A stretch of DNA of 64,000 bases. Source: Gemmatimonadota bacterium. Its GTDB lineage: Bacteria; Gemmatimonadota; Gemmatimonadetes; Gemmatimonadales; GWC2-71-9. The first letter of the stretch is position 1. Each line of letters begins with the position of its first letter. The position numbers were made by a program, and so were the translations under genes. The stretch spans positions 63,129 to 127,128 of the forward strand of contig JAZDCZ010000251.1 of the NCBI GenBank assembly GCA_036679605.1. The letters run 5' to 3'. This document shows positions 1,518 to 60,462 of this stretch, piece after piece. A model generated the notes under the pieces. That model was not told the DNA's origin. It did no database searches and was given only the letters and a program-made list of their open reading frames with translations.

Positions 1518-4500
1518 TCCCTGGTGGCGGTAGGTGTGGGCGGCACAGTAATGTCCTTCCTCTACCGTGCAGCGTTCCGTGAGCAACGTGCGCGACTGAC
1601 TGATACGGCCCATGGCCGGGCGCACATGATGGAAGCCATAGCGCGGTTCGATTCGGCCTATGGTGACAACTATCCCGGGGGATTCTACGAGGCCACCCTT
1701 TCCCAAGTAAGAGCAGCCCACGAGGAGTTTGAGGGCTTCGGAAACACAGGAGAACTCGCCGTCGCCCGGCGCGAGGGCGACCTGATCGTCTTCGTCTTGC
1801 GGCACCGGCACGCAGGGAAAGGCATGCTCGACGATACCCTTCCCTTCTTCGGGGAACGGGCCGAGCCGATGCGCCGCGCGCTGAGCGGCCGGTCGGGCAC
1901 TGTCATCGGCATCGACTACCGGGGAGAGCGAGTGCTCGCTGCCTACGAACCAGTGACCATGCTCGATCTCGGCGTAGTCGCAAAGATCGATCTTGCCGAA
2001 GTGCGGGCACCGTTCGTCCGGGCCGGGCTGTTGGGTGCCGGGGGCAGCCTCATCTTGATCGTGCTCGGAATCGGGATATTCCGGCGAGTAGCGAATCCGT
2101 TGCTGCGAGAGGTCGACGCAAACGCAAGACGATATCGCGGACTGTTCGAGAATGCTCCCGTCTCGATATGGGAAGAGGATTTTTTCCAAGTCAAAACCTA
2201 CCTAGACGATCTCGGATTCTTCGAGATAGAAGACGTCGAGTCCTATTTGGATGACCACCCGGATGTTGTACGGCAGTGCGCGCAACGGGTTACGGTCCTG
2301 GCCGTCAACCGGCGTGCTGCTGAACTGCACGAAGCTGACAACGCAGCGGAGTTGCTGAAGGAACTGTCGAGGATTACCGAAGTAAGCTACGTGGCGTTCA
2401 GGCGGGAGTTGGTGGCGATGTGGCGCGGCGACACCGAGTGCGAAGTCGAGGGGCAAGTAATAACCTTGAAGGGTTCGTTGCGTGACGTCATCGTCAAGTG
2501 GTCGATCGTGCCCGGTCACGAGGAGGACTTATCCCGGATCTTGGTTTCGCTGCTCGATGTGACCGACCGCAAGCGATCCGAAGAGGCACTCAGGGAGGGC
2601 GAGAAGCGACTGAGCCTCACACTGGATGCCGTAAGCGACGGCGCATGGGATTGGAATGTCGCGACGGGCGAAGTGCGCTACAGTGACCGTTGGGTGGAGT
2701 CACTGGGGTACCGGCCAGAGGAAGTCGAACCGCACGAGAGTTTCTGGCGGAGTCTCATCCATCCGGATGATGTACCGAAGGTTGACGAAGCGCTCATGGA
2801 GCACTTTGACGGTCGTACCGATTACTACGAATGCGAAAACCGCCTTCGCATGAAATCGGGCGAGTACCGGGATAACCTAGACAGGGGGAAAGTTATCTCC
2901 CGTGACGCCCAGGGAAGACCGCTCCGAATGGTGGGCACGGATACCGACATCACCGAGCGGCGGAAGGCAGAGAATGCCCTACGGACAAGCGAGAGCCGCT
3001 ATCGCTTGCTGTTCCAAGATTCGCGCGACGCCATCTTCATAACCTCCGTGGACGGCCGGTTTGCCGACGTGAACGACGCAGGCCTTGACCTGCTGCGCTA
3101 CTCTCGTGATGAGTTCGCCGATATCCGCGTTGCCGACATATCCGACGATCTCGACGGCATGCGACAGTTCCAGCACGCAGTCGACAAGGTAGGCTTCGTG
3201 AAAGACTACCTGGCCCTTGTGCGACGCAAGGACGGAGTCGTGCTCGACTGTCTGCTCACGTCGACGGCGCGGCGCGCAGCAGACGGCACAGTGATCGGAT
3301 ACCAGACCATCGCTCGGGACGACACCCAACGCAGGCGGATGGAGAACGAGTTGCGGCGATCCCGCAACGAACTCTACATTCGGAATCGGATCTCACACGT
3401 GTTCCTGACCGAAGCCGGCGACGAGTTGTTTGGAGAGCTGCTTGACGTCTTGATCGGTGCTACGGAGAGCGAGTTCGGGTTCCTGGGCTACATCGATGAG
3501 GACGGCGCTTTGGTCTGTGCCTCGATGAGGCAGCGAACTTGGACCAAGCGGCAAATGGAACAGAAGGTCATGGTGGTCCCGCCGTCGAGCTGGGAGGGTA
3601 TCTGGGGACAATCTCTCCGCGAGTGCAGAACCATTTGGTCGAACGATTCGCTGAAAATGCCTGAGTTTCAACTGCAGTTGAACGCCGCGATCGCCGTCCC
3701 GATTGTGCACGGTAAGAAATTGATTGGCCAATTCGTATTGGCAAACAAGCCGGCCGGCTACGACGCGAGAGACGGAGAGTTCTTGGACACCCTTGCAGAA
3801 TACATCTTCCCACTTCTCGAGTCGAAGCTCACCGCCGAGCGCACCAGAAAGTTCAGTGAGCAGGCGTGGGCCACGGTGCGAGGTGTTCGCGACCGGCTGC
3901 AACTGAGCATAGATCGTATGCCGATCGCTTACATCCTGTGGGATGAATCAACCAAGGTCACGGTATGGAATCCAGCGGCCGCACGGATCTTCGGCTACAC
4001 CAACGAGGAAGCAGTGGGACGATCGCTGCTCGATCTAGTCGTTCCGGATTCCATCCGGCTAGACGTCGCCAACGTAATGCAAGCGCTCTTGGGGGGTGAA
4101 GAAGCATCGTACTCGGAACCCAACAACAATGTGTGCAAGGATGGAACGGTGATCTCCTGCCAGTGGTACAACACGCCAATCAAGCTAGGAGACCAAGAGA
4201 CATCGCTAGTCCTTTCCATGGTGCTGGACGTCACCAAACAGGTGGAGGGCGAAAAGACCCTGCGTCTCAACTCGGCCGCATTAGAGGCCGCAGCGAACGC
4301 CATAGTGATTACCGACGAAGAGGGCGCCATTCAGTGGACCAATTCCGCCTTCGAGCGCTGTACAGGCTACAATCAAGAGGAAGTTGCCGGCAGGAATCCG
4401 CGGTTTCTCAAGTCTGGAAGACAAGGCAGAGCATTCTACATCGACTTGTGGGATACCATACTCGACGGGCGAACCTGGCACGGCGAGATGACAAACAAAC

Positions 4501-5279
4501 GCAAGAATGGAACCCTCTACACTGAGGAGCAGTCCATCACTCCGATGAGTAGCGGCGGCGAGATCACTCATTTCATCAGCATCAGACAAGACATCACCGA
4601 GCGCAAGCGACTGGAGCAGGAGGTTCTCGAGATTGATGAACGGGAGCGGCAGAGTATCGGTCAAGACCTCCACGACATGCTGGGCCAGCAGCTGACGGGT
4701 ATGGGCCTGATGCTCCAGGCGTTGCGGGGAAACGCGGCGCGGCAGGAGGCGGTGGATTCGGACGTGGTCAGTAAACTTCAAGATCTCGTGAAGACTGCCG
4801 CTGTCCACACGCGCTTCGTCTCGCGGGGCCTGTTGAAGCTCACACCTGGGAGGAGCGGCTTGATAGATGCCTTGGAGGACTTGGCATCGACAGCGGAGAA
4901 ACTCTTCGACATCACTTGTGACATACGGATCACCGATAACGTCGAGATCTCTGACTCGACGGTCACCCGGCACGTCTATCACATCGCCCAGGAAGCGGTG
5001 ACCAACGCCGTGCGTCACGGGAGAGCCGCCAGCGTGGTAATCGCACTCAGACTCCACGAAGATAAGACCGTGATGAGCGTGAGCGACGACGGCTGTGGTA
5101 TTCCTGACAATCTGCCTTCAGATAAGGGACTTGGACTCAGCACCATGCGCTATCGCGCACACGCCATAGGTGGCTCGTTGGAGGTTAGGCGCGGCGAGGA
5201 ATCCGGCACTGTTGTGCGTTGCACGTTACCGCGAATGAGCGACCCTGGCCAGGATCAGAGCACATATCTCGATGGTTGA
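1467..5279 (+). CDS. Membrane sensor histidine kinase: Cache-like domain, multiple PAS, GAF, HisKA_3/HATPase
   Basis: Two TM segments, DYRGERVLAAYEP Cache-like motif, repeated PAS ends (DVTDRK, DITER), H-box IGQDLHDMLGQ, QEAVTNAVRHG, DDGCG, GLGL. Confidence 0.92.
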   Translation: MTSMHIRDRMSVLVVVMSLVAVGVGGTVMSFLYRAAFREQRARLTDTAHGRAHMMEAIARFDSAYGDNYPGGFYEATLSQVRAAHEEFEGFGNTGELAVARREGDLIVFVLRHRHAGKGMLDDTLPFFGERAEPMRRALSGRSGTVIGIDYRGERVLAAYEPVTMLDLGVVAKIDLAEVRAPFVRAGLLGAGGSLILIVLGIGIFRRVANPLLREVDANARRYRGLFENAPVSIWEEDFFQVKTYLDDLGFFEIEDVESYLDDHPDVVRQCAQRVTVLAVNRRAAELHEADNAAELLKELSRITEVSYVAFRRELVAMWRGDTECEVEGQVITLKGSLRDVIVKWSIVPGHEEDLSRILVSLLDVTDRKRSEEALREGEKRLSLTLDAVSDGAWDWNVATGEVRYSDRWVESLGYRPEEVEPHESFWRSLIHPDDVPKVDEALMEHFDGRTDYYECENRLRMKSGEYRDNLDRGKVISRDAQGRPLRMVGTDTDITERRKAENALRTSESRYRLLFQDSRDAIFITSVDGRFADVNDAGLDLLRYSRDEFADIRVADISDDLDGMRQFQHAVDKVGFVKDYLALVRRKDGVVLDCLLTSTARRAADGTVIGYQTIARDDTQRRRMENELRRSRNELYIRNRISHVFLTEAGDELFGELLDVLIGATESEFGFLGYIDEDGALVCASMRQRTWTKRQMEQKVMVVPPSSWEGIWGQSLRECRTIWSNDSLKMPEFQLQLNAAIAVPIVHGKKLIGQFVLANKPAGYDARDGEFLDTLAEYIFPLLESKLTAERTRKFSEQAWATVRGVRDRLQLSIDRMPIAYILWDESTKVTVWNPAAARIFGYTNEEAVGRSLLDLVVPDSIRLDVANVMQALLGGEEASYSEPNNNVCKDGTVISCQWYNTPIKLGDQETSLVLSMVLDVTKQVEGEKTLRLNSAALEAAANAIVITDEEGAIQWTNSAFERCTGYNQEEVAGRNPRFLKSGRQGRAFYIDLWDTILDGRTWHGEMTNKRKNGTLYTEEQSITPMSSGGEITHFISIRQDITERKRLEQEVLEIDERERQSIGQDLHDMLGQQLTGMGLMLQALRGNAARQEAVDSDVVSKLQDLVKTAAVHTRFVSRGLLKLTPGRSGLIDALEDLASTAEKLFDITCDIRITDNVEISDSTVTRHVYHIAQEAVTNAVRHGRAASVVIALRLHEDKTVMSVSDDGCGIPDNLPSDKGLGLSTMRYRAHAIGGSLEVRRGEESGTVVRCTLPRMSDPGQDQSTYLDG

Positions 5280-26852: not shown

Positions 26853-26913
26853 GGGAGTGGGGAGTGGGGAGTGGGGAGTGAAATACTCCCTACTCCCGAC
26901 TCACTACTCCCCC
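26853..26913. repeat. Heptamer repeat hairpin: (GGGAGTG)4 followed by TACTCCC-type complements
   Basis: Visible directly, just after the RNase stop codon. Confidence 0.8.
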
Positions 26914-40632: not shown

Positions 40633-40752
40633 CAAACCCGAAGCTACTTCGTGACGGCCTTATGTTGTCATCGTGTTCGCGCGGGGGGAATCGTTTTTGT
40701 GCGGATCATCTAGACTGTCACAGATCTAACACGTCATCTCGCGTTGCGTTGG
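40623..40752. repeat. 130-bp direct repeat, copy 1
   Basis: Identical to 41568-41697 except for 2 mismatches near the left end. Confidence 0.95.
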
Positions 40753-41016
40753 ACGAGCAACGATCTCAAGACTACCACCCATGGCCTCGATATATTTGCG
40801 CAACGTGCTCACGTAAACATCGGTGCGCTTTTCCAATCGAGAAATGCCCGACTGTCGGGTGCCTAACGTTTCCGCGAGAGCCTCCTGTGACAGTTTGCGA
40901 GCTTGTCTTAGCTCTTGAAGAGGCATTTCCTTCATCATAGCGACGGCACGCTCGTGCGCGCGCTGCCGCCGCTCTTCCGGCATTCTCGCACGTAGCTCTT
41001 TGAAGTTCTTAGGCAT
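40726..41016 (-). CDS. XRE-HTH antitoxin (HigA-like); C-terminus supplied by the repeat
   Basis: LQELRQARKLSQEALAETLGTRQSGISRLEKRTDVYVSTLRKYIEAMGG. Confidence 0.9.
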   Translation of the reverse strand: MPKNFKELRARMPEERRQRAHERAVAMMKEMPLQELRQARKLSQEALAETLGTRQSGISRLEKRTDVYVSTLRKYIEAMGGSLEIVARPTQREMTC

Positions 41017-41374
41017 CTAGAAGCTTCTCTCTTTCAATAATCTGCAGGTGCTCATCGTACAGCTTGTCAGCCACAGGCACGAATTCGTCATACCACCGAT
41101 CGCTGCCAGTCTTGTTCCCACCAATCAACAGAATAGCCATCCGACGCGGGTCGAATGCATACAGTACTCGGTACGGGTCTCCTTGATGTTGTATGCGGAG
41201 TTCCCGCATGTGGCCATGCTTTGACTGATGAACCCCTGAAGAATGTGGGTACGACAGTTGTGGCCCCCTATTCTCCAACAGCTCGACAGTTGCGGTAACG
41301 GATTCTTGCTCATGTTCACCAAGTTGGTCCCACCAGTGCGCAAACTCGTTGGTGACTTCGACATCCCATGTCAC
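41009..41374 (-). CDS. RelE/ParE-superfamily toxin (HigB/Gp49-like)
   Basis: HMRELRIQH.GDPYRVLYAFDPRRMAILLIGGNK; toxin-first gene order. Confidence 0.92.
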   Translation of the reverse strand: MTWDVEVTNEFAHWWDQLGEHEQESVTATVELLENRGPQLSYPHSSGVHQSKHGHMRELRIQHQGDPYRVLYAFDPRRMAILLIGGNKTGSDRWYDEFVPVADKLYDEHLQIIEREKLLDA

Positions 41375-43371: not shown

Positions 43372-44229
43372 GTGGGCAACAGTCTCCAACCATTGATTCG
43401 CAAGCTGATACCCCGGTCCGCTCGGAACTGGCTCAGATCCCCCACTCGATCGGTACGCTGGTTGCTCGAGGAGATCGAGTGCCGGATGGGTCGTCACCGA
43501 ACGATCGAGTTACGACAGGACTGGTCCCTAAAATTGGATCCGGCCGCCTACCGTGTTTTCTCGGCAGGCCAACTGGATGACCCCGTTCAAGCCGCCGAGT
43601 TGGATGAGTTCATTGCAACGTGCAGCGACGGCATGGTGTTGTTCGATGTCGGTGCGCACTTTGGCGTGTTTTCCCTCGCAACAATACACTACGGCGGATC
43701 GAACGCGCGTGCGCTCGCAGTCGAGCCATCCACTTCGGCATGCCGCGTGCTGAACAACCAAGCGAAACTGAACGGTATTGCCGACCAGATCACTGTGGTT
43801 CGAGCCGCGGCCGGTAACTCGAGTGGCTGGATTAACATGCTCGCTACCGGTGTTATCGCCGACGGTTATCTCGTGCCGGCTGACGGCAACCGGCCCGCCG
43901 CAGATCTCACCAGAGTCAGGTCAGTGACAGTTGACGAACTGGTTCGCGAGACGTCGTTACATCCCACGCATCTCAAGGTCGACGTAGAGGGCCAAGAAGC
44001 AGCAGTGCTCCGTGGCGCACACGAACTGCTATCGAGCAATGCTACTCCACTCGTGTTCATCGAACTGCACAACGACATCGTGCGCGAACGCGGAGACGAT
44101 CCGTCGGAGTCATTGAACCTCTTGCAGAGCTACGGTTACGGTGACCTTAGCATCGCCGGCCGGCAGGTGTCGCAGAAAGACTTATTGATCGAACCCCTAG
44201 TTCGAGCTGTGGTTCGCAAGCGGCCCTGA
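43372..44229 (+). CDS. FkbM family methyltransferase
   Basis: FDVGAHFGVFS, AVEP, LKVDVEGQE..VLRGA. Confidence 0.9.
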   Translation: MGNSLQPLIRKLIPRSARNWLRSPTRSVRWLLEEIECRMGRHRTIELRQDWSLKLDPAAYRVFSAGQLDDPVQAAELDEFIATCSDGMVLFDVGAHFGVFSLATIHYGGSNARALAVEPSTSACRVLNNQAKLNGIADQITVVRAAAGNSSGWINMLATGVIADGYLVPADGNRPAADLTRVRSVTVDELVRETSLHPTHLKVDVEGQEAAVLRGAHELLSSNATPLVFIELHNDIVRERGDDPSESLNLLQSYGYGDLSIAGRQVSQKDLLIEPLVRAVVRKRP

Positions 44230-44407
44230 GCGGAAGCCGGTCATCTCCTCGCTTGTGGGAAATGCATCGAACCATCTTCGACAGCTACTTGCCAGAAGTC
44301 AGGGCGGTCCAAATATTCTCAACAGATTTGGCAAATCTAAGCACGGCGTCATCCTCTGTGCACTGCGTCGCAATTCTCTATGGACCAACGGATCGTACGG
44401 AGCGCGA

Positions 44408-45631
44408 CTAGTGCTCTACCCCATAGCACACAATAGCTTCTTCGTTGTCTTGTGACCGCGTCACGCCGCAGATCGAGCTTTGGGAGACAGCGAGCGGGCG
44501 GAATCGGACTGGCATCGTCACCCGTAACGGCCTGATCGAAGCAGGGTCCCAAACGGTCCATTCACCCGCTGACGTGTCCGGCGGCGGATATCTCTCTAGC
44601 CACACCCTCTTCATGGGGTCAATCAGAAAGCGCCGATACGCAGGGTACAGCCGGGGATACGGCATCTCCATCACTCGACGTTGTTCGATGGCACGCTGCT
44701 CAGCGCGTGCTTTCGCAAGCTCCGAGCGGCGATACATCTTGATGTCCGAAGGTGACACGGGCCGTGCCACCTCATCGGATCGATACTCGCCACTCAGACG
44801 ACCTGAATATGAGTAGAACGAAACTCTTGCTGCGGAGCCGTCGCCGACCACGAATCCACCAGGAGTGGCCACGACGGTCGTGCTCCTGCCGAAAGCAAGC
44901 ATCCAGTAGGCGATGCCTCCGAATTGAGGAGGTACTTCCTGAATAAAGTGCTCCCTCTCTAGGAACCTGCCCACTCTGCCTACCAGTTCACCCGTGACAT
45001 CATATCTAAACACTACCTGTGAAAAGCCGACGGCCACGGGGCTTGGTCGGGCTGTCGTTACCTCTGAGTACCCCACAAGCAACGTTCCGTCCAACAGCGC
45101 AACGACAAGAGTAACCGACCCGCCCACACCAGGCGGAGGAGTCAGGGCAATGGTCTTGACGAAGGAACCGTCGGACTTGAACAGGGAAAAGCGGCGAAGC
45201 ATTGCGTCGTACACTAGGAGAGAATCGCCCGGCATTCTCTGAAGGAAGGTGAGATCCTGAAACTCTCCGGGACCCGAGCCCTCACGGCCGCTTTTCCTCA
45301 GGAACTCTCCATTCCGGTCGAAAAAACAGAGTTCAGAGTTACCCGAATTCGCGACAACTGACTTGCCCCCCTTAAGAAGAAGTATCGCCGAAACTCTGTA
45401 GAACCCGCAGTCCGGCAGGGGGCGCAAGCGTACGGTGGGGACACCGGTAAGCCGTAGTGTGCTCTTGCGCATGCCGTCGGCGGTGAAGGTGAAGATCCGG
45501 ACGCCTGCACTGTCGATTGATGGAGCCGCCTGAGCCTTGATACGCGAGGCAGTTATCGGCTGAAGGACCCCGACAATACATGCGGCCAGGTAACGCATTG
45601 GCAACCGCCACTGGCAGAATCGGTATCTCAC
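44408..45631 (-). CDS. Exported 6-bladed beta-propeller-like protein; start may be ~45598
   Basis: FFDRNGEFLRKSGREGSGPGEFQ and GDSLLVYD NHL-like repeats; signal peptide. Confidence 0.75.
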   Translation of the reverse strand: MRYRFCQWRLPMRYLAACIVGVLQPITASRIKAQAAPSIDSAGVRIFTFTADGMRKSTLRLTGVPTVRLRPLPDCGFYRVSAILLLKGGKSVVANSGNSELCFFDRNGEFLRKSGREGSGPGEFQDLTFLQRMPGDSLLVYDAMLRRFSLFKSDGSFVKTIALTPPPGVGGSVTLVVALLDGTLLVGYSEVTTARPSPVAVGFSQVVFRYDVTGELVGRVGRFLEREHFIQEVPPQFGGIAYWMLAFGRSTTVVATPGGFVVGDGSAARVSFYSYSGRLSGEYRSDEVARPVSPSDIKMYRRSELAKARAEQRAIEQRRVMEMPYPRLYPAYRRFLIDPMKRVWLERYPPPDTSAGEWTVWDPASIRPLRVTMPVRFRPLAVSQSSICGVTRSQDNEEAIVCYGVEH

Positions 45632-45652
45632 TCAGTTCCCCTCAAACAACAG

Positions 45653-46249
45653 CTACGGTTGATGATTCGACTCGGAATCGAAGTCCACGGCGAACGCATT
45701 GATGCTGCTGGCGCCGACCTTCCGCATAAGCAACCGATCTGGAGTCACGCTCAAGGTCGTCTTCTCAGCAACGATATCGCGTTCCAAAATGATGAGCTGC
45801 GGGGTTGATAACTGTCCCGGCTTGCCCCGCAACAAGAAATCGATCGATCCAGTGTTAAGCCAACTCCCGCCCGCCAGAATCTCGTCGAATGGGCCGTAGG
45901 GCTTCAGGAATTCGATCCCTTCCTCAGGTGTTTGGTCTAGAGCCACTCCCATCCAAACCAGCCGCTTGCCTTCAGAGATCGCCTGATTTGCCAATTGCCG
46001 GCGAATACTACGAAGGGACGGCTTAAGGTTAGCGTCACGAGACGCCGGGCACGTCGACGATGTGACGTAGATTGCTACTAGCTCAGTTCCTGTGCGCACT
46101 CGCGCTAACGGCGTTTCGCTCGTCCCCTCCTCGACCGGCCCCGCACCTCGCAATGTTCTGAGCACAATTACTCCAATAAGTAACGAGATGCAAACGACCG
46201 CAAGTGCGCCACCGAGAATGGCGAGAAGCCGCTCTGATGCCTTACTCAC
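45653..46249 (-). CDS. Membrane-anchored thioredoxin-like hypothetical protein
   Basis: N-terminal TM; LVAIYVTSSTCPAS (CxxS) and later TPQLIIL resembling the cis-Pro loop. Confidence 0.55.
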   Translation of the reverse strand: MSKASERLLAILGGALAVVCISLLIGVIVLRTLRGAGPVEEGTSETPLARVRTGTELVAIYVTSSTCPASRDANLKPSLRSIRRQLANQAISEGKRLVWMGVALDQTPEEGIEFLKPYGPFDEILAGGSWLNTGSIDFLLRGKPGQLSTPQLIILERDIVAEKTTLSVTPDRLLMRKVGASSINAFAVDFDSESNHQP

Positions 46250-47280
46250 GATATGAGACGGTGTACGTAGTGAAGCGCACCACGTCTTTCACCCTCGGCT
46301 CACCCACGACGAGCCGCGCAGCGGTTGCAGCATACACAAATGGAATGTCATCCTGAGAGCCAACCACGCGCCCGTCGCGAGCGCTGATCAGCCACGTTTT
46401 CAGCGTAACGTGACTTCCACTCATTCCGTGGCGACGCTCGATTTGCACCGCAACGAGCCCCGCCGCCGGAGAAAAGACGGATATCACCTGATCCCAGAGG
46501 CTGTCGGCCGAGTATCCGTATCGCACGGTCTGCGGATTCGGATGGTCCATTCGAATGGTGCGAAATCCATCGAAGGAGCGGTTCCATCGCAGTTGGCCCT
46601 TTTCAGAATATGCGCGCAGTTCAGGGTACAGCGACGACGCAACTATGACGAGTCGCTCAGTGTTCATACATAGTAAGTGACCGAAACCGTAAACGTCGTC
46701 ACCAAGGACTGATGGATCCCCGAAAGGCACTCCAAAACTGGTCTGCTTCTGATCCCGACCGAACGTGTGCACCACGGCACTGGCTCCGTAGTCGCCTTCA
46801 GTCCCCATAACGAAAATTCGCGCACGAACTGTGCAGGCGGCAGAGATACGGAGCAATCCCAGGTTCCGTTCAGAAACCTTGCGCCAGCCTGATGGATCAT
46901 TATGAGCAAAAGACGTCGCCGTACCTGTTCGAGCGTCGATCAGGTTGAAGAATCCTTCCGGATTGTATGTCAGAGCTACCGGCTCCGCAGCGTGCACATC
47001 CAATGTTTCAAGGAAGGCTGGTCTTCCGACCCATCGACCATCCACGTCGAGCAGAGTAAGCACCCTGCGCTCGCTGTCGAACAGCGCGAAGCCGCTCGTC
47101 CCCGTTGGGACAACGTCCCGGATCTCGCCGAAACTCGATCCATCCTTGAATCGCCGAATCTCAGCGACTTCTCGCTCGAGTAGCAATCGCTGAGCATCTG
47201 CTTCGGAACTCGACAGCAGGCTGAAGCATACGAACCACGGAAGACTGGCCCAAAGCAACAGCATCTTGCCCACTGCCATA
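46242..47280 (-). CDS. Exported beta-propeller-like hypothetical protein
   Basis: Signal peptide (..ADAQ); repeated beta-strand blades (FGEIRDV..ALFD..LLDVDGR; LRAYSEKGQL). Confidence 0.6.
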
Positions 47281-47362
47281 ATGTTTCCTTCGTTCATGGT
47301 AACAGTCCCAGCGTTGTGTCACGGTGCCACAAGTGTGATCACCCTAGATCGTCTGGATGGTC

Positions 47363-47396
47363 CAGAGGGTGGATGCCCTCGCACACCCACCCTCTG
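47363..47396 (-). terminator. Stem-loop downstream of the peptide gene
   Basis: cagagggtgg / ccaccctctg 10-bp stem; no clear U-tract. Confidence 0.45.
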
Positions 47397-47439
47397 ACAG
47401 GATTGAGGGTTCAAGGCCCAGCGGCCTCAACTAGTCTCC

Positions 47440-47676
47440 TCACTCCACCCCGCACTTCGACCAACCATCGCAGTAATGCGGGGGCGTGCCGGACAAGTTG
47501 CAGCCGCTGTTCCAGTTATACTGACAGCTGGTTTCGCCGGGGTTACAGTAGGTGTTGCCGCACACAAGTGCCGCCGCGGCCTTCGCCTGCAGTGTTGGTG
47601 CGGTCAGCGTCATCGCGGCCGCCCCAGCGGTGACTAGGGTGAACATCGCGACGAACAGAAGCTTTGCTCTTTGCAT
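47440..47676 (-). CDS. Small secreted six-cysteine peptide (78 aa precursor)
   Basis: GGAGGA RBS; hydrophobic leader, then CGNTYCNPGETSCQYNWNSGCNLSGTPPHYCDGWSKCGVE. Confidence 0.8.
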   Translation of the reverse strand: MQRAKLLFVAMFTLVTAGAAAMTLTAPTLQAKAAAALVCGNTYCNPGETSCQYNWNSGCNLSGTPPHYCDGWSKCGVE

Positions 47677-47778
47677 CGTTCCTCCAATTTTGGTGTGTTC
47701 ACAGGAGTGATCGCGCAACGGGCAAACCCGACTGCTAACGGCTCCTGTCTGCACCGGAACCCATTTTGAGTTCCGTGA

Positions 47779-48429
47779 TCACCGTTGGCTCAATAACACT
47801 TGCACTATGCTGTCCATAGCAACTCCAGAGGGCGACGAAGAGAACAGCAACTCGTTCATCATGATGGTGGGAGTACCTCGGACGCCCAAGCGCTCGCCAG
47901 CTGCTACGTCATTGGCGATTGAAGTGTTATCGCCGCCTTCACGAATGCAGGTCGCGAACGCGATGGTATCAGGGACGCCGCCGCGTTCTGCAAACCAGTT
48001 CCACGACCTGCGTCCGAGAGAGTCCTGGAACGCGAACATGATCGCTGCCACGCTTTCGAAGCGATCTTGGCGGCCTGCACACTCAGTAGCGACGGCGGCC
48101 GCGTACGCGTACGCGTGAATATTGTCGAGCGGAAAGTGTCGAACAACGACCGCGACATCCTTCGGGTATCTTGCCCGAAGACTGGCAAGATCTGTCGCAG
48201 TTTTTGCGCAGTACGGGCATTCGAAGTCGACAAATTCCACTATCGTTACTCGTGCGTCGGATGGGCCCGACCAGTGACCCGCCGATGAGTATGACCGCCA
48301 GTCACTTACACGCTCAATGGTGGGTGGTCCCTCCCTCACAACAGGACGCAGTTGGGTAGTGAGAGCGGTCACGGTAAGAATGACCGCGCTAATCGATGTG
48401 ACCATGAGCGTCGCATCCAATCCCTTCAT
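47779..48429 (-). CDS. DsbA-family thiol:disulfide oxidoreductase
   Basis: VTIVEFVDFECPYC, RHFPL, GVRGTPT; N-terminal anchor; GAGG RBS. Confidence 0.92.
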   Translation of the reverse strand: MKGLDATLMVTSISAVILTVTALTTQLRPVVREGPPTIERVSDWRSYSSAGHWSGPSDARVTIVEFVDFECPYCAKTATDLASLRARYPKDVAVVVRHFPLDNIHAYAYAAAVATECAGRQDRFESVAAIMFAFQDSLGRRSWNWFAERGGVPDTIAFATCIREGGDNTSIANDVAAGERLGVRGTPTIMMNELLFSSSPSGVAMDSIVQVLLSQR

Positions 48430-48537
48430 TCATACCTCCTTGCAGCGGCCATAAGGTCGGTAGGACTCGCGGCTCTTTGCGCAAGCAGCATCAGAACAGT
48501 ACCTGAACCATATGCACAATTCTTCCAGACAGCGAGA

Positions 48538-48590
48538 GTCCGAACGTGCATTTCTAGGGTCCGAACGTGCACTTTTAGGGTCCGAACGTG
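48538..48590. repeat. Three GTCCGAACGTG direct repeats at 21-bp period
   Basis: Copies start at 48538, 48559 and 48580, between the regulator stop and dsbA. Confidence 0.85.
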
Positions 48591-48603
48591 ATCGACCAGG
48601 CGA

Positions 48604-49347
48604 TTAGATGCCCGATGAAGCGCATAGACTCGGCGGATCCCATCTGTTCCAAGGCACCTCGATACCCGCACGCCGACATGCACGCCGAAAGTCCGTCCGG
48701 TCGTAAATCCCTAGATACGGCTCGAACCTCTTCCGTGACACCCCTGCCCGGGCGAACCAGATCCACGACTCGGCTCGCAGCGCCGTAACCAAATACTCGG
48801 TCCGCTCGAACTCGCAGGCGTGTACTGTATCTCTGACCTTCCCACGAGATACGGCAAGCGCCTTGGCGAAATCGACCGTCGTTTGCACACCTGCCGGTTT
48901 GTGGACGAAGACTTCGAGCACTCGGCGCGGAATCATCGCCAGCTCCGGCACGGACATGATATGGGGCATCAGTCCACGAGCGCCCGGACTCGCGAGCTTT
49001 CGAACGGCCTCTACCAAGGCGCTAGAGTCAAGATTTCTGGAGGGTACGGACACCAGGTTCCCACAGGCCATATACGGCAAGGCTCTGACCGGAATGCCTT
49101 GTTCACCCGCAACCAGCACGATATTCTGGATGTTCGCCGCCGGTACCCGCGCTAGCCAGTCACTATCCACCAACCAGAACCGCCGGTCGCGCGGCCTGTC
49201 GGGAAATGCGGGGGGGGACGCAGCAACACGGAACTCGAGCCCCAGTCGCCGCAACTCGGACTTGACTCGGCTCTCAAGGCCAGGATCGGCCACACACACG
49301 AGAATCCGTGCATTCTCCACGCAATGCTCCTTCTCCGCGACGGCCAA
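48604..49347 (-). CDS. Divergent AraC-like regulator with degenerate receiver-like N-terminus
   Basis: RILVCVAD..FWLVD; C-terminal TTVDFAKALAVSRGKV and LGIYDRTDFRRACRR resemble the two AraC HTHs. Confidence 0.55.
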   Translation of the reverse strand: MAVAEKEHCVENARILVCVADPGLESRVKSELRRLGLEFRVAASPPAFPDRPRDRRFWLVDSDWLARVPAANIQNIVLVAGEQGIPVRALPYMACGNLVSVPSRNLDSSALVEAVRKLASPGARGLMPHIMSVPELAMIPRRVLEVFVHKPAGVQTTVDFAKALAVSRGKVRDTVHACEFERTEYLVTALRAESWIWFARAGVSRKRFEPYLGIYDRTDFRRACRRAGIEVPWNRWDPPSLCASSGI

Positions 49348-49405
49348 TTCTTACAGGTATCGCTAGATCAGGGACGTGTCAATACCCGCTCGCAAGATGT
49401 CCTGA

Positions 49406-50245
49406 TCACAACCCCGTCATCTCCTCGCTCACATCCCACAGTCTACGTGCCAGCTCCATATCGCACGAAGCCCTAGAAGACCGGACTTCCCGATCGCGAT
49501 TGAAATATTTCCCGGTGACCGCGGCGAACTCGGGAGCGGTTGCCAGACGTACAATCGACTCCGCACTTTTTCTAGGACTGATGTAAAACAGTTTGAAAAT
49601 ACGCAGCAAGTAATTCAACGGATTATTATTACGATTCCAGATGCGCGTAGCCACAACACCGGGGTGCAAGGCAAGTGTCGTTACTCCGGTGCCCTCTAGA
49701 CGCCGGGCCAGCTCGTGGGTGAACAGCACATTGGCCAGCTTCGAGCGCGCATACGCATCGATCCAGTTGTATCGTCGCTCCATGCACAGGTCTTCGAAGT
49801 CGATTGTCCCACGCCGATGAGCCTCTGAACTGACGGTAATGACCCGTGACGGCGAACTCACCTTGAGTGTATCTAGTAGCAGGTTCGTGAGCAGGAACGG
49901 AGCTAAATGATTGACGGCAAACGTGGTCTCGATGCCGTCGTCCGTAACCGTGCGTTTGCTGAGGTAGAGACCAGCGTTGTTGATCAACACATCCAGCCGG
50001 TCGTGAGACTGTAAGAACTTCCGCACCAGCTTACGAACTTGCTCTTGCGACCCCAGATCGGCCGTAAGGAGTTCTACGCTGGAATTCTCGCTCCTCCGAC
50101 GGATATCGCGGAGCGCCGGTTCGCCGCGCTGCTCGTTGCGGCACACGATCACCACTCGGGCGCCGAGCTTGGCCAGATGCTGAGCAGCGGCCTTGCCGAT
50201 CCCGGAACTTGCACCCGTCACGAGAATGGTCTTGTCGCCTATCAC
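49406..50245 (-). CDS. SDR oxidoreductase (retinol dehydrogenase-like)
   Basis: TGASSGIG, NNAG, FAVNHLAPF, YARSK. Confidence 0.93.
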   Translation of the reverse strand: MIGDKTILVTGASSGIGKAAAQHLAKLGARVVIVCRNEQRGEPALRDIRRRSENSSVELLTADLGSQEQVRKLVRKFLQSHDRLDVLINNAGLYLSKRTVTDDGIETTFAVNHLAPFLLTNLLLDTLKVSSPSRVITVSSEAHRRGTIDFEDLCMERRYNWIDAYARSKLANVLFTHELARRLEGTGVTTLALHPGVVATRIWNRNNNPLNYLLRIFKLFYISPRKSAESIVRLATAPEFAAVTGKYFNRDREVRSSRASCDMELARRLWDVSEEMTGL

Positions 50246-58845: not shown

Positions 58846-60462
58846 CTAGAAGAACACGGGCTCGCGGTACGCGCCATAGACCTCCTCGAGGACACTTCGG
58901 ATCTCGAACAATGTGCAGTACGCGCGTGCGCAGTCGAGCATCGAGGGAATGACATTCTCGTCACTCTGCGCGGCGTCTTTCATGACCTCGAGGCAGCGCT
59001 GGACCCGCTCACTGTCTCTCTGCTCGCGCATCGCACCGAGACGCCTCGCCTGAGTGACCGTTGCCTCATCGCTGACCTTCAATATTTCGACCTCGTGATC
59101 GTCTTCTTCAACGAACTCGTTCACACCCACCACGATTCGTCGACGCTGCTCGACTTCGTGTTGCATTCGCATTGAGCTTTGAGCAATCTGTCTTTGGAAC
59201 CAGCCCGACTCTATCCCCTTAACGACTCCCCCAATCTTGTCGATCTCGGAGAAGAGAGCCTCTGCCCCTTGCTCCATTTGATTCGTGAGTGACTCCACGA
59301 AATACGATCCGCCTAATGGGTCGGCTACGTTAGTTACACCTGTCTCGTACGCCAATATTTGCTGTGTGCGGAGGGCGAGCTTGACAGCTCCTTCGGTCGG
59401 CAAAGCGAGGGTCTCGTCTAGAGAATTAGTGTGAAGCGATTGCGCACCGGACAAGACCGCAGCCATCGCCTGGTATGCAACTCTCACAACATTGTTCATC
59501 GGTTGTTGCGCCGTTAGCGACACCCCTGCTGTCTGGCAATGGAACCGCATCGTTGTCGACCGTGGGTCGGTGGCGCCATAGCGGTGCCGCATGTGCCGAG
59601 CCCAGATTCGCCTGGCAGCCCGCATCTTAGCAATTTCTTCGAAGAAGTCGCTGTGGACGTCCCAGAAAAAGGATAGCCGTCCCGCAAACGTATCGACATC
59701 CAGCTCATGAGCTATGCCTCGCTCGACGTATTCGAATCCGTTCGCCAGTGTAAAGGCCAACTCTTGAACCGCTGTCGCTCCGGCCTCACGAATATGGTAG
59801 CCGCTGATCGATACCGTATTCCAAAGCGGCGTGTGCTCCGCTGACCACTCAAAGAGGTCTACTATGACCTTGAGCGCCGGCTCGACGGGAAAGACCCAGG
59901 CATGCTGGGCCATGTATTCCTTGAGGATGTCGTTCTGAATGGTGCCACGCAACTGCGATATGTCCACGCCCTGTCGCTCCGCAGCCGCCACATAAAAACA
60001 AAACAACATGGCGGCGGGTCCGTTTATCGTCATCGACGTCGAGACCTTGTCCATCGGTATTCCCTCGAACAATGTCTCCATGTCGGCCAACGACGAGATT
60101 GCGACGCCACATTTGCCGACCTCACCCTCCGATCGAGCGTGGTCAGAATCGTAGCCCATCAGAGTCGGGAAATCGAAGGCGACAGATAGTCCTGTCTGAC
60201 CCCGCTCGAGCAAGAACTTATACCTGGCGTTCGTGTCTTCCGCCGTACCGAACCCTGCGAACTGCCGCATCGTCCACAACCTGCCTCGGTACATCGTTTC
60301 GTGAATGCCACGTGTGAACGGATAACTTCCAGGAGATCCCAGTTGCTCATCAGGATCGAAGCCGGCAAGATGGTCTCGGGTATACAGTGGTTCTAGCTCG
60401 GAAGAGCCCGACGACCCAAAGTCGATATTCCGACGCCACTGTTTGGCCGCACTATTCTCCAT
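58846..60462 (-). CDS. Acyl-CoA mutase large subunit (MCM family, isobutyryl-CoA mutase-like residues)
   Basis: YPFTRGI..WTMRQFAGFG, QNDILKEYMAQ, ISGYHIREAG, QSLHTNSLDE. Confidence 0.92.
   Translation of the reverse strand: MENSAAKQWRRNIDFGSSGSSELEPLYTRDHLAGFDPDEQLGSPGSYPFTRGIHETMYRGRLWTMRQFAGFGTAEDTNARYKFLLERGQTGLSVAFDFPTLMGYDSDHARSEGEVGKCGVAISSLADMETLFEGIPMDKVSTSMTINGPAAMLFCFYVAAAERQGVDISQLRGTIQNDILKEYMAQHAWVFPVEPALKVIVDLFEWSAEHTPLWNTVSISGYHIREAGATAVQELAFTLANGFEYVERGIAHELDVDTFAGRLSFFWDVHSDFFEEIAKMRAARRIWARHMRHRYGATDPRSTTMRFHCQTAGVSLTAQQPMNNVVRVAYQAMAAVLSGAQSLHTNSLDETLALPTEGAVKLALRTQQILAYETGVTNVADPLGGSYFVESLTNQMEQGAEALFSEIDKIGGVVKGIESGWFQRQIAQSSMRMQHEVEQRRRIVVGVNEFVEEDDHEVEILKVSDEATVTQARRLGAMREQRDSERVQRCLEVMKDAAQSDENVIPSMLDCARAYCTLFEIRSVLEEVYGAYREPVFF

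Follow-up and report, generated by a model that had tools for sequence, protein, structure and literature searches.

A candidate cassette for a disulfide-folded exported peptide with a beta-propeller and a single-cysteine thioredoxin-fold protein in Gemmatimonadota

Does a small, cysteine-rich exported peptide encoded among thioredoxin-fold proteins and beta-propellers form a system with them, and what might such a system do? The question is raised by a 64,000-nucleotide stretch of a Gemmatimonadota bacterium (contig JAZDCZ010000251.1, positions 63,129 to 127,128; hereafter the window), in which six co-oriented genes had been proposed, from the letters alone, to serve a secreted disulfide-rich peptide. 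All six open reading frames (ORFs) were found on the minus strand. In transcriptional order they encode a likely AraC/XylS-like regulator (48604..49347), a DsbA-like dithiol oxidoreductase (47779..48429), a six-cysteine peptide precursor of 78 amino acids (aa; 47440..47676), an exported NHL/DUF5128-type beta-propeller (propeller 1, 46242..47297), a membrane-anchored single-cysteine thioredoxin-fold protein (CxxS protein, 45653..46249) and an exported DUF5128-type six-bladed beta-propeller (propeller 2, 44408..45631). Our reading, held with middling confidence, is that the cassette specifies a disulfide-folded exported miniprotein with a cognate propeller partner, folded by DsbA and the CxxS protein. 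As a layout, the original prediction survives in part: the peptide, propeller 1 and the CxxS protein constitute a recurring core, whereas DsbA, the regulator and its repeats, like propeller 2, are accessory.

The core is defined by co-occurrence. In a sample of 401 genomes of the phylum, the CxxS family was present in 64, and 91 CxxS loci were assembled, 90 from this search and one from a separate search (two close pairs merged; three rows from the window's own genome, four rows with E>1e-5 and two second pieces of split genes left out). A filter blind to cysteine spacing, which asked for a leader, a ribosome-binding site, at least six cysteines and the same strand, detected exported peptides at 62 of the 91 loci (86 peptides in total), compared with 0 of 36 strand-windows from nine stretches of other genomes and 10 of 5,000 windows drawn at random from this genome; relaxed criteria, applied by hand, added six loci (68/91). 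A propeller was encoded at 75/91 loci, and at 52 of the 91 it immediately preceded the CxxS gene or was in one frame with it. The commonest layout, peptide-propeller-CxxS, recurs in eight families of the phylum sample, and such peptides were also seen at 8 of 11 loci from public contig scans. In the reverse direction, a peptide profile trained on CxxS neighbours gave 90 matches in 45 of the 401 genomes, 37 of which have a CxxS gene; for 77 of the 90 matches a CxxS gene lay no more than 6 kb away, and of the other 13, nine had a propeller in the fetched stretch, two of these with DsbA. The homologue search suggested at the outset thus revealed wide co-occurrence of the cassette genes, yet it displaced the pairing of DsbA with the peptide from the heart of the system, as DsbA was found at only 14 of 91 CxxS loci. 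In the window's genome itself, all three CxxS genes are accompanied by a six-cysteine peptide, a DsbA and a propeller.

Sequence identities among 23 peptide-propeller-CxxS triplets were correlated, with coefficients of 0.37 for peptide and propeller, 0.39 for peptide and CxxS protein and 0.49 for propeller and CxxS protein; the partial correlations were 0.22 for peptide-propeller and 0.26 for peptide-CxxS. A quick tree, used only for the two placements that follow, assigned the second of two cysteine spacing classes to one CxxS clade (6/8 rows, three families, support 99) and placed the CxxS protein of the window as sister to that of locus L021, where the peptide shares the spacing of the window peptide (support 95). 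As judged from their sequences, peptide, propeller and CxxS protein are inherited together and travel as a unit. The genes around this unit are less constant. Recurring neighbours (47 of 48 same-strand clusters scanned, single-locus neighbours left aside) include carboxypeptidase-regulatory-like proteins (17 loci), TonB-plug proteins (14), two-component proteins (8-9), MacB/FtsX permeases (6) and signal peptidases (5). None of these 47 families is a modifying enzyme (radical SAM, YcaO, LanM or DUF692), a leader-peptidase ABC transporter, a glycosyltransferase, a five-helix membrane protein, a small membrane immunity protein, or a MauG-like, MauE-like, cytochrome or copper-protein gene; the predicted absence of a classical modifying enzyme for ribosomally synthesized and post-translationally modified peptides held for the six genes as well as for these families. 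MacB/FtsX-type permease genes stand directly 3' of the cassette at L019, L020, L039, L074 and L089, and the complete peptide-propeller-CxxS cassette at L019 is on a contig labelled as a Pseudomonadales metagenome-assembled genome, reflecting either transfer or a binning error.

The peptide gene of the window has a strong ribosome-binding site (GGAGG, 4 nucleotides (nt) 5' of the ATG), and its product carries a hydrophobic Sec-type leader of 33-36 aa followed by a C-4-C-6-C-7-C-9-C-5-C core, features that agree with the initial description, the spacing exactly. The mature core predicted from the 78-aa precursor comprises about 42-45 aa (4.5-4.8 kDa) with a net charge of -2. Its homologues P0184 (60% identity) and L021 (49% identity) retain identical cysteine spacing, and across 55 aligned peptides only M1 and the six cysteines are invariant. 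The pattern C-(3-5)-C-(4-15)-C-(7-11)-C-(4-18)-C-(2-5)-C fits 79 of 99 peptides and a second class, C-1-C-9-C-6-C-6-C-3-C, fits 10, the remaining 10 fitting neither. Cysteine counts are mostly even (6 in 69/86 peptides, 8 in 12/86), 70 of 79 cores have a net charge of -1 or lower, the median non-cysteine identity among cores is 9%, and single loci encode one to five different peptides. In line with the original prediction the peptide is a conserved, clearly coding gene, and the family shows purifying selection: in 11 close pairs pN/pS was 0.35 for the core and 0.34 for the leader, values biased towards low pN by the choice of pairs with at least 60% identity, and between the window peptide and that of L021 pS was 0.62 and pN 0.37. 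Positive selection was not seen in these pairs.

No consistent Pfam/NCBIfam family was found among the 55 peptides, a sequence search of the PDB with the peptide profile gave no match, and Atlas matches for the peptide were all below 0.9 and serve as leads only. A Tat export route was rejected, the strict motif being present in 0/55 leaders. At five loci the same six-cysteine domain is fused at the N-terminus of exported proteins of 235-242 aa whose C-terminal portion matches no assigned domain (L033 5683-6390; L035 5597-6325; L038 2026-2742; L043 6805-7515; L051 5557-6282), as would be expected of a modular binding domain; in three of the five, a signal peptidase I gene follows.

The CxxS protein has a C67-P-A-S motif and an N-terminal hydrophobic helix. 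Its family comprises 1,920 clusters at 50% identity (E<=0.001), in which homologues, where named, are called only 'hypothetical protein'; a Pfam/NCBIfam scan of 147 members matched no family in more than one member, and a PDB sequence search with the family profile returned no match. As the original prediction supposed, then, no curated family covers either the peptide or the CxxS protein. Comparison of the CxxS profile by hhalign with 14 TlpA/AhpC-type domains of this genome gave a probability of 95% (E 2.7e-8) and aligned C67 with the first cysteine of CxxC, S70 with the second, and P150 with the cis-proline, a match that identifies the protein as a probable single-cysteine thioredoxin-fold membrane family. 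Among the 147 members C67 is conserved in at least 90% and P150 in 100%, the motif reads CxxS in 109, CxxA in 12 and CxxC in 9, and the soluble domain of 136 contains just one cysteine; an N-terminal hydrophobic helix is present in 124 of 141 full-length members. Atlas neighbours are of the TlpA/AhpC type, and the clusters are mostly from Gemmatimonadota and Balneolota. One homologue with CxxC, P0142, is fused to a C-terminal domain that we take to resemble DUF192.

Thioredoxin-fold enzymes with the first active-site cysteine only are known from yeast. According to work on Eug1p-like protein disulfide isomerase homologues (PMC2195995), CxxS enzymes cannot carry oxidizing equivalents and are suited to shuffling, and Eug1p depends on a CxxC oxidase, as we suppose for the CxxS protein. 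Eug1p is a eukaryotic enzyme of the endoplasmic reticulum with broad clients, as described there, whereas the protein considered here is bacterial, single-domain, membrane-anchored, TlpA-like and tied to one peptide family.

Of the two propellers announced for the locus, propeller 2 was recovered directly by PF17170 (DUF5128; E 3e-7, score 30.5 vs a cut-off of 22.9), whereas propeller 1 alone had no Pfam/NCBIfam match and was recognized through a local profile of neighbouring propellers (E 9e-38). Its family profile matches NHL propellers in the PDB (TRIM71, E 1e-50), and its paralogues match PF17170. The propeller 1 gene, of the subfamily that precedes CxxS genes, overlaps the CxxS gene by 8 nt. 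Within this subfamily a cysteine pair is conserved (C155 in 37/40 and C210 in 38/40 members), and a few conserved polar residues are retained (D61, D74, W238, Q285, R288). Propeller 2 has many paralogues, being one of about 60 in a genome with 61 propeller ORFs. In Bacteroidota, NVEALA genes adjoin DUF5128/TolB-like propellers, for which we found no paper; there too, a small exported cysteine-containing protein is encoded 5' of a DUF5128-type propeller, as in the window, but 0/55 peptides matched the NVEALA family (PF14055) at E<=0.1, and the window adds six cysteines and a dedicated CxxS thioredoxin. A genome-wide search for the NVEALA family gave no match, not even for its controls, and so carries no weight. 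Lanthanide/PQQ propeller motifs were absent among the conserved columns of propeller 1, although no formal motif search was made, and a preprint on such propellers (10.64898/2026.07.10.737718) concerns other propellers.

The DsbA-like protein encoded upstream of the peptide, with CPYC, a GTP cis-proline loop and an N-terminal hydrophobic segment, is supported as such by PF13462 (E 2e-22, 80 bits vs a cut-off of 23), PF01323 (E 4e-12) and the DsbA structure 4pwo (E 4e-9). A housekeeping DsbA-VKOR pair is encoded elsewhere in the genome (at C251), so the redox genes of the cassette come in addition to it. A thioredoxin-fold gene (DsbA, TlpA-like or CxxS) lies within 2.5 kb of 11 of the 21 exported cysteine-rich peptides of this genome, compared with 2.3% of random places, and at two sites (C18 and C282) such genes flank peptides without a nearby propeller.

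The regulator has a degenerate N-terminal domain and a putative C-terminal double helix-turn-helix (HTH) pattern; the database gene call is 238 aa long, starting nine codons later than the ORF given above. No Pfam/NCBIfam match was obtained. An hhalign comparison of eight homologues with seven AraC HTH_18 domains of this genome gave E 3.8e-4 at a probability of 36%, a PDB comparison gave VirS at E 0.43, and a pairwise comparison with a bona fide AraC paralogue was not significant. Starting 14 nt after its stop codon are the predicted 21-bp repeats, three 10-bp direct copies of ACGTTCGGAC spaced 21 bp apart (48538..48589, minus strand); two overlapping pairs were found here where 0.01 were expected by chance. 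AraC/XylS activators bind direct repeats about 21 bp apart. The putative double HTH pattern and repeats just 5' of a weak promoter-like stretch are shared with these systems, from which the regulator differs in falling below HTH_18 detection in Pfam, in being encoded upstream in the same direction and in having an N-terminal domain that could not be assigned. The genome also encodes two paralogues of the regulator, at 52% over the C-terminal half, both standing directly 5' of the repeat, and the tandem repeat recurs at six further places of this genome, 5' of eight-cysteine peptide or DsbA genes, and at two places in the congener G001. The repeats are a likely operator of a portable promoter; against this, the congener has repeats but no regulator match with this query.

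The regulator was matched in 3 and the repeats in 2 of the 401 genomes; in G391, 3' of a regulator homologue of 35% identity, a variant half-site keeps the 21-bp period and the downstream context, ahead of unrelated genes, which supports an operator role. The regulator-repeat unit is portable and not specific to the six-cysteine peptide class, and other CxxS loci are flanked by two-component, extracytoplasmic function (ECF) or no regulators. Scans for sigma-70 promoters and terminators gave counts at chance level. Further arrays with a 21-bp period occur at G000:C113 (about 2729-2800) and G000:C254 (about 60001-60080); they may be non-coding or may encode pentapeptide- or heptad-like repeats.

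The predicted stem-loop behind the peptide gene was also found: 14 pairs at 47363..47396 (minus strand), 44 nt 3' of the peptide stop, without a U-run and not among the listed terminators. It is stronger than shuffled sequences, of which 7/200 fold as well over 148 nt (z -2.2; best 45-nt window z -3.4). Strong hairpins follow 21% of the 86 peptide genes vs 7% of 94 thioredoxin-like genes; the hairpin was therefore rejected as a general conserved feature, and in the window it is likely an mRNA-stabilizing or attenuating element.

A related set of peptides accompanies the repeat promoter. This genome encodes nine exported peptides whose eight cysteines follow a CxxxC...CC(x)C pattern resembling that of cysteine-stabilized alpha-beta defensins (L003 (G000:C415) 177-413, 3767-3997 and 4268-4504; L004 (C270); L005 (C347) 440-676; G000:C18, C89 and C282), five of them behind the same 21-bp repeat promoter and four beside a TlpA-like gene. 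DUF4876 lipoproteins (PF16215) alternate with eight-cysteine peptide genes and repeat promoters (L003 598-1914; L005 836-2152; L004, C270 7880-10675), which suggests tandem duplication. At L006 (G000:C334, 3138-4267), a CxxCH gene split over two ORFs, presumably cytochrome-c-peroxidase-like, follows an eight-cysteine peptide, a DsbA and a propeller. Beside a paralogous cassette, G000:C422 9257-11416 (partly in L001) encodes a protein of 719 aa that begins with an anti-sigma-like region and ends in a thioredoxin-like domain; similar long proteins are encoded on C357, C13 and C294.

The region differs between close relatives. In the congener G001 the enoyl-CoA hydratase gene begins 6 nt after the FkbM gene, whereas in the window 7.1 kb, holding the cassette and SDR, cupin and MgtC genes, separate the two; one congener does not give the direction of this change, gain or loss. 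The cassette is bracketed by a diverged 40-bp direct repeat (44214..44253 and 49390..49429, 80% identical), likely an insertion scar: the right copy spans the 3' end of the SDR gene, and both copies read SEEMTG on the minus strand, the C-terminus of that gene. Between the left copy and propeller 2, the interval 44254..44400 (minus strand, stops in all three frames) is likely the decayed remnant of a further propeller gene, with 84% identity to G001:C115 over 44 nt and 10/17 residues identical to the propeller encoded there (E 1e-5 in a single comparison). Composition does not single the cassette out as foreign, the G+C content at third codon positions being 0.60-0.76 in the cassette and 0.64-0.74 in the flanks. 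No excision joint was found in one set of contigs, probably the source; the window lies entirely within a single contig of that set, which is not independent evidence. Elsewhere in the window, a gene pair (41009-41374 and 40726-41016), which we take to be a RelE/ParE-like toxin and an HTH antitoxin, stands between RecQ and a truncated-globin-like gene and is absent from the congener's syntenic stretch, and a long palindromic repeat (26853-26911) consists of four GGGAGTG units followed by four near-complementary TACTCCC units.

Which known systems does the cassette resemble? The alternative that best survives is a Sec-exported, unmodified bacteriocin-like toxin, folded by its own oxidoreductases, with the propeller as a sequestering immunity protein; we consider it unlikely, if worth keeping in sight. 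Sublancin (sunA-sunT-bdbA-sunS-bdbB; PMC4336743) and the bacteroidetocins (class IIf bacteriocins; PMC6671954) likewise place a small cysteine-rich precursor beside its own thioredoxin-fold enzyme (here DsbA and the CxxS protein), and a hairpin follows sunA as it follows the peptide gene of the window. The high divergence of the cores and a patchy, mobile distribution (64/401 genomes) would also suit a bacteriocin. In those systems, though, the leader is removed by a peptidase-ABC transporter, whereas the window has a Sec-type leader and no such transporter in the cassette, nor does it hold a glycosyltransferase, the SunI of sublancin or the five-helix membrane protein of bacteroidetocins; the acidic cores, partnered by a beta-propeller and a one-cysteine thioredoxin, set it apart as well. 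Against a toxin stand further the net charge of -1 or lower in 70/79 cores, the absence of a leader-peptidase transporter, glycosyltransferase or small membrane immunity protein from the 47 neighbour families, and purifying rather than diversifying selection in close pairs, which were picked at 60% identity or more. The idea of a toxin with propeller immunity, raised as one option in the original prediction, is thus disfavoured. None of the six cassette proteins matched PADLOC anti-phage models.

A second alternative holds that the redox proteins serve mainly the propellers, through C155-C210, and sees the peptide as a redox or metal-binding helper, its cysteines holding metal or buffering thiols in place of a fixed fold. 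The propeller lies directly upstream of the CxxS gene in 52/91 loci, often overlapping it, the propeller-CxxS correlation is the strongest of the three, and acidic cores could chelate cations. We nevertheless judge this improbable: the dominance of even cysteine counts and the way the spacing class follows the CxxS clade are as for paired disulfides, and thioredoxin-fold genes flank peptides that have no propeller nearby.

Methylamine dehydrogenase (MADH) offers a third comparison. Its large subunit is a beta-propeller, and its small subunit is conserved and carries a tryptophan-derived cofactor. If the peptide were the small, disulfide-rich chain of such an enzyme built on a propeller, this would account for the same parts, a small cysteine-rich exported chain, a propeller and a thioredoxin-fold helper, and for some conserved polar residues in propeller 1. 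In a preprint (bioRxiv 10.64898/2026.03.05.709764), MauD is a thioredoxin-like maturation protein of this enzyme, and the MauA/MauB/MauD/MauE cluster likewise combines a disulfide-rich exported small chain with a thioredoxin-fold helper in one operon; MauD, by that account, has CxxC where the window protein has CxxS, and no MauE- or MauG-like gene recurs here. Since no residue of the mature peptide is conserved besides the six cysteines, there is no cofactor-forming tryptophan pair; MauG-like, cytochrome and copper-protein genes are missing from the recurring neighbours, and a locus may encode one to five different peptides, which together make this explanation rather more doubtful still. A chance gathering of unrelated cargo genes on an island, as the exchangeable regulator, repeats, DsbA and propeller 2 and the insertion or deletion relative to the congener might suggest, is very hard to credit and for the three core genes is refuted by co-occurrence (a peptide at 62/91 CxxS loci vs a 0.2% background, the peptide-propeller-CxxS order recurring in eight families), holding only for the accessory genes.

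The reading of the cassette as a folding line for an exported miniprotein with its own propeller would run as follows. The AraC-like protein would activate the promoter at the 21-bp repeats, and the hairpin would raise peptide mRNA above that of the downstream genes. Sec and signal peptidase I would release the 42-45-aa core, to be oxidized in the periplasm by DsbA or, at loci that lack one, by the housekeeping DsbA-VKOR pair. The CxxS protein, which cannot close a disulfide in its own active site, would attack mispaired disulfides of the peptide and perhaps also C155-C210 of the propeller; it is thus a likely shuffler or holder, with DsbA the likely oxidase, a division of labour suggested by the suitability of CxxS enzymes for shuffling and their inability to oxidize (PMC2195995). 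The propeller is the likely partner of the peptide, given its constant position between the peptide and CxxS genes. Peptide and propeller would then meet in the envelope as a variable pair of ligand and binder, which would most likely serve signalling or recognition and not membrane killing. We infer, in line with the initial proposal, three disulfides, folding catalysts and a propeller that may act as receptor.

Several points weigh against this reading. Even under relaxed criteria 23 of 91 CxxS loci lack a peptide, and 16 lack a propeller, several being short contigs; no receptor or signal-output gene is constant among the loci. The identity correlations indicate that the genes travel as a unit and are no proof of contact, as linkage alone predicts them, and related loci in that set are not independent; the reverse count is partly circular through the training of its profile. 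The conserved C155-C210 pair is a possible alternative client for the CxxS protein, and an enzymatic role of the propeller is conceivable given D61, D74, W238, Q285 and R288.

That a peptide can come with an oxidoreductase of its own is already known from bacteriocins; the parts and their combination here are undescribed. The literature searched, with subscription journals and bioRxiv supplements outside its scope, described neither the cassette nor the families to which the peptide and the CxxS protein belong. Three-disulfide miniproteins are known mostly from animals and plants. Tentatively, and with less assurance than for the main reading, we suggest a widespread pathway in which the monothiol thioredoxin is a dedicated isomerase for each cysteine framework and each hypervariable miniprotein serves its own propeller as ligand. 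If so, bacteria would possess many matched pairs of ligand and binder, a set that bears comparison with plant cysteine-rich peptide signals and animal disulfide peptide scaffolds. The tie of the peptides to the CxxS family and a propeller subfamily makes the CxxS gene a marker by which natural disulfide scaffolds, missed by gene callers and family libraries, could be mined in their thousands; its protein is a candidate dedicated bacterial monothiol isomerase, and part of the many DUF5128 propellers in these genomes gains a candidate job.

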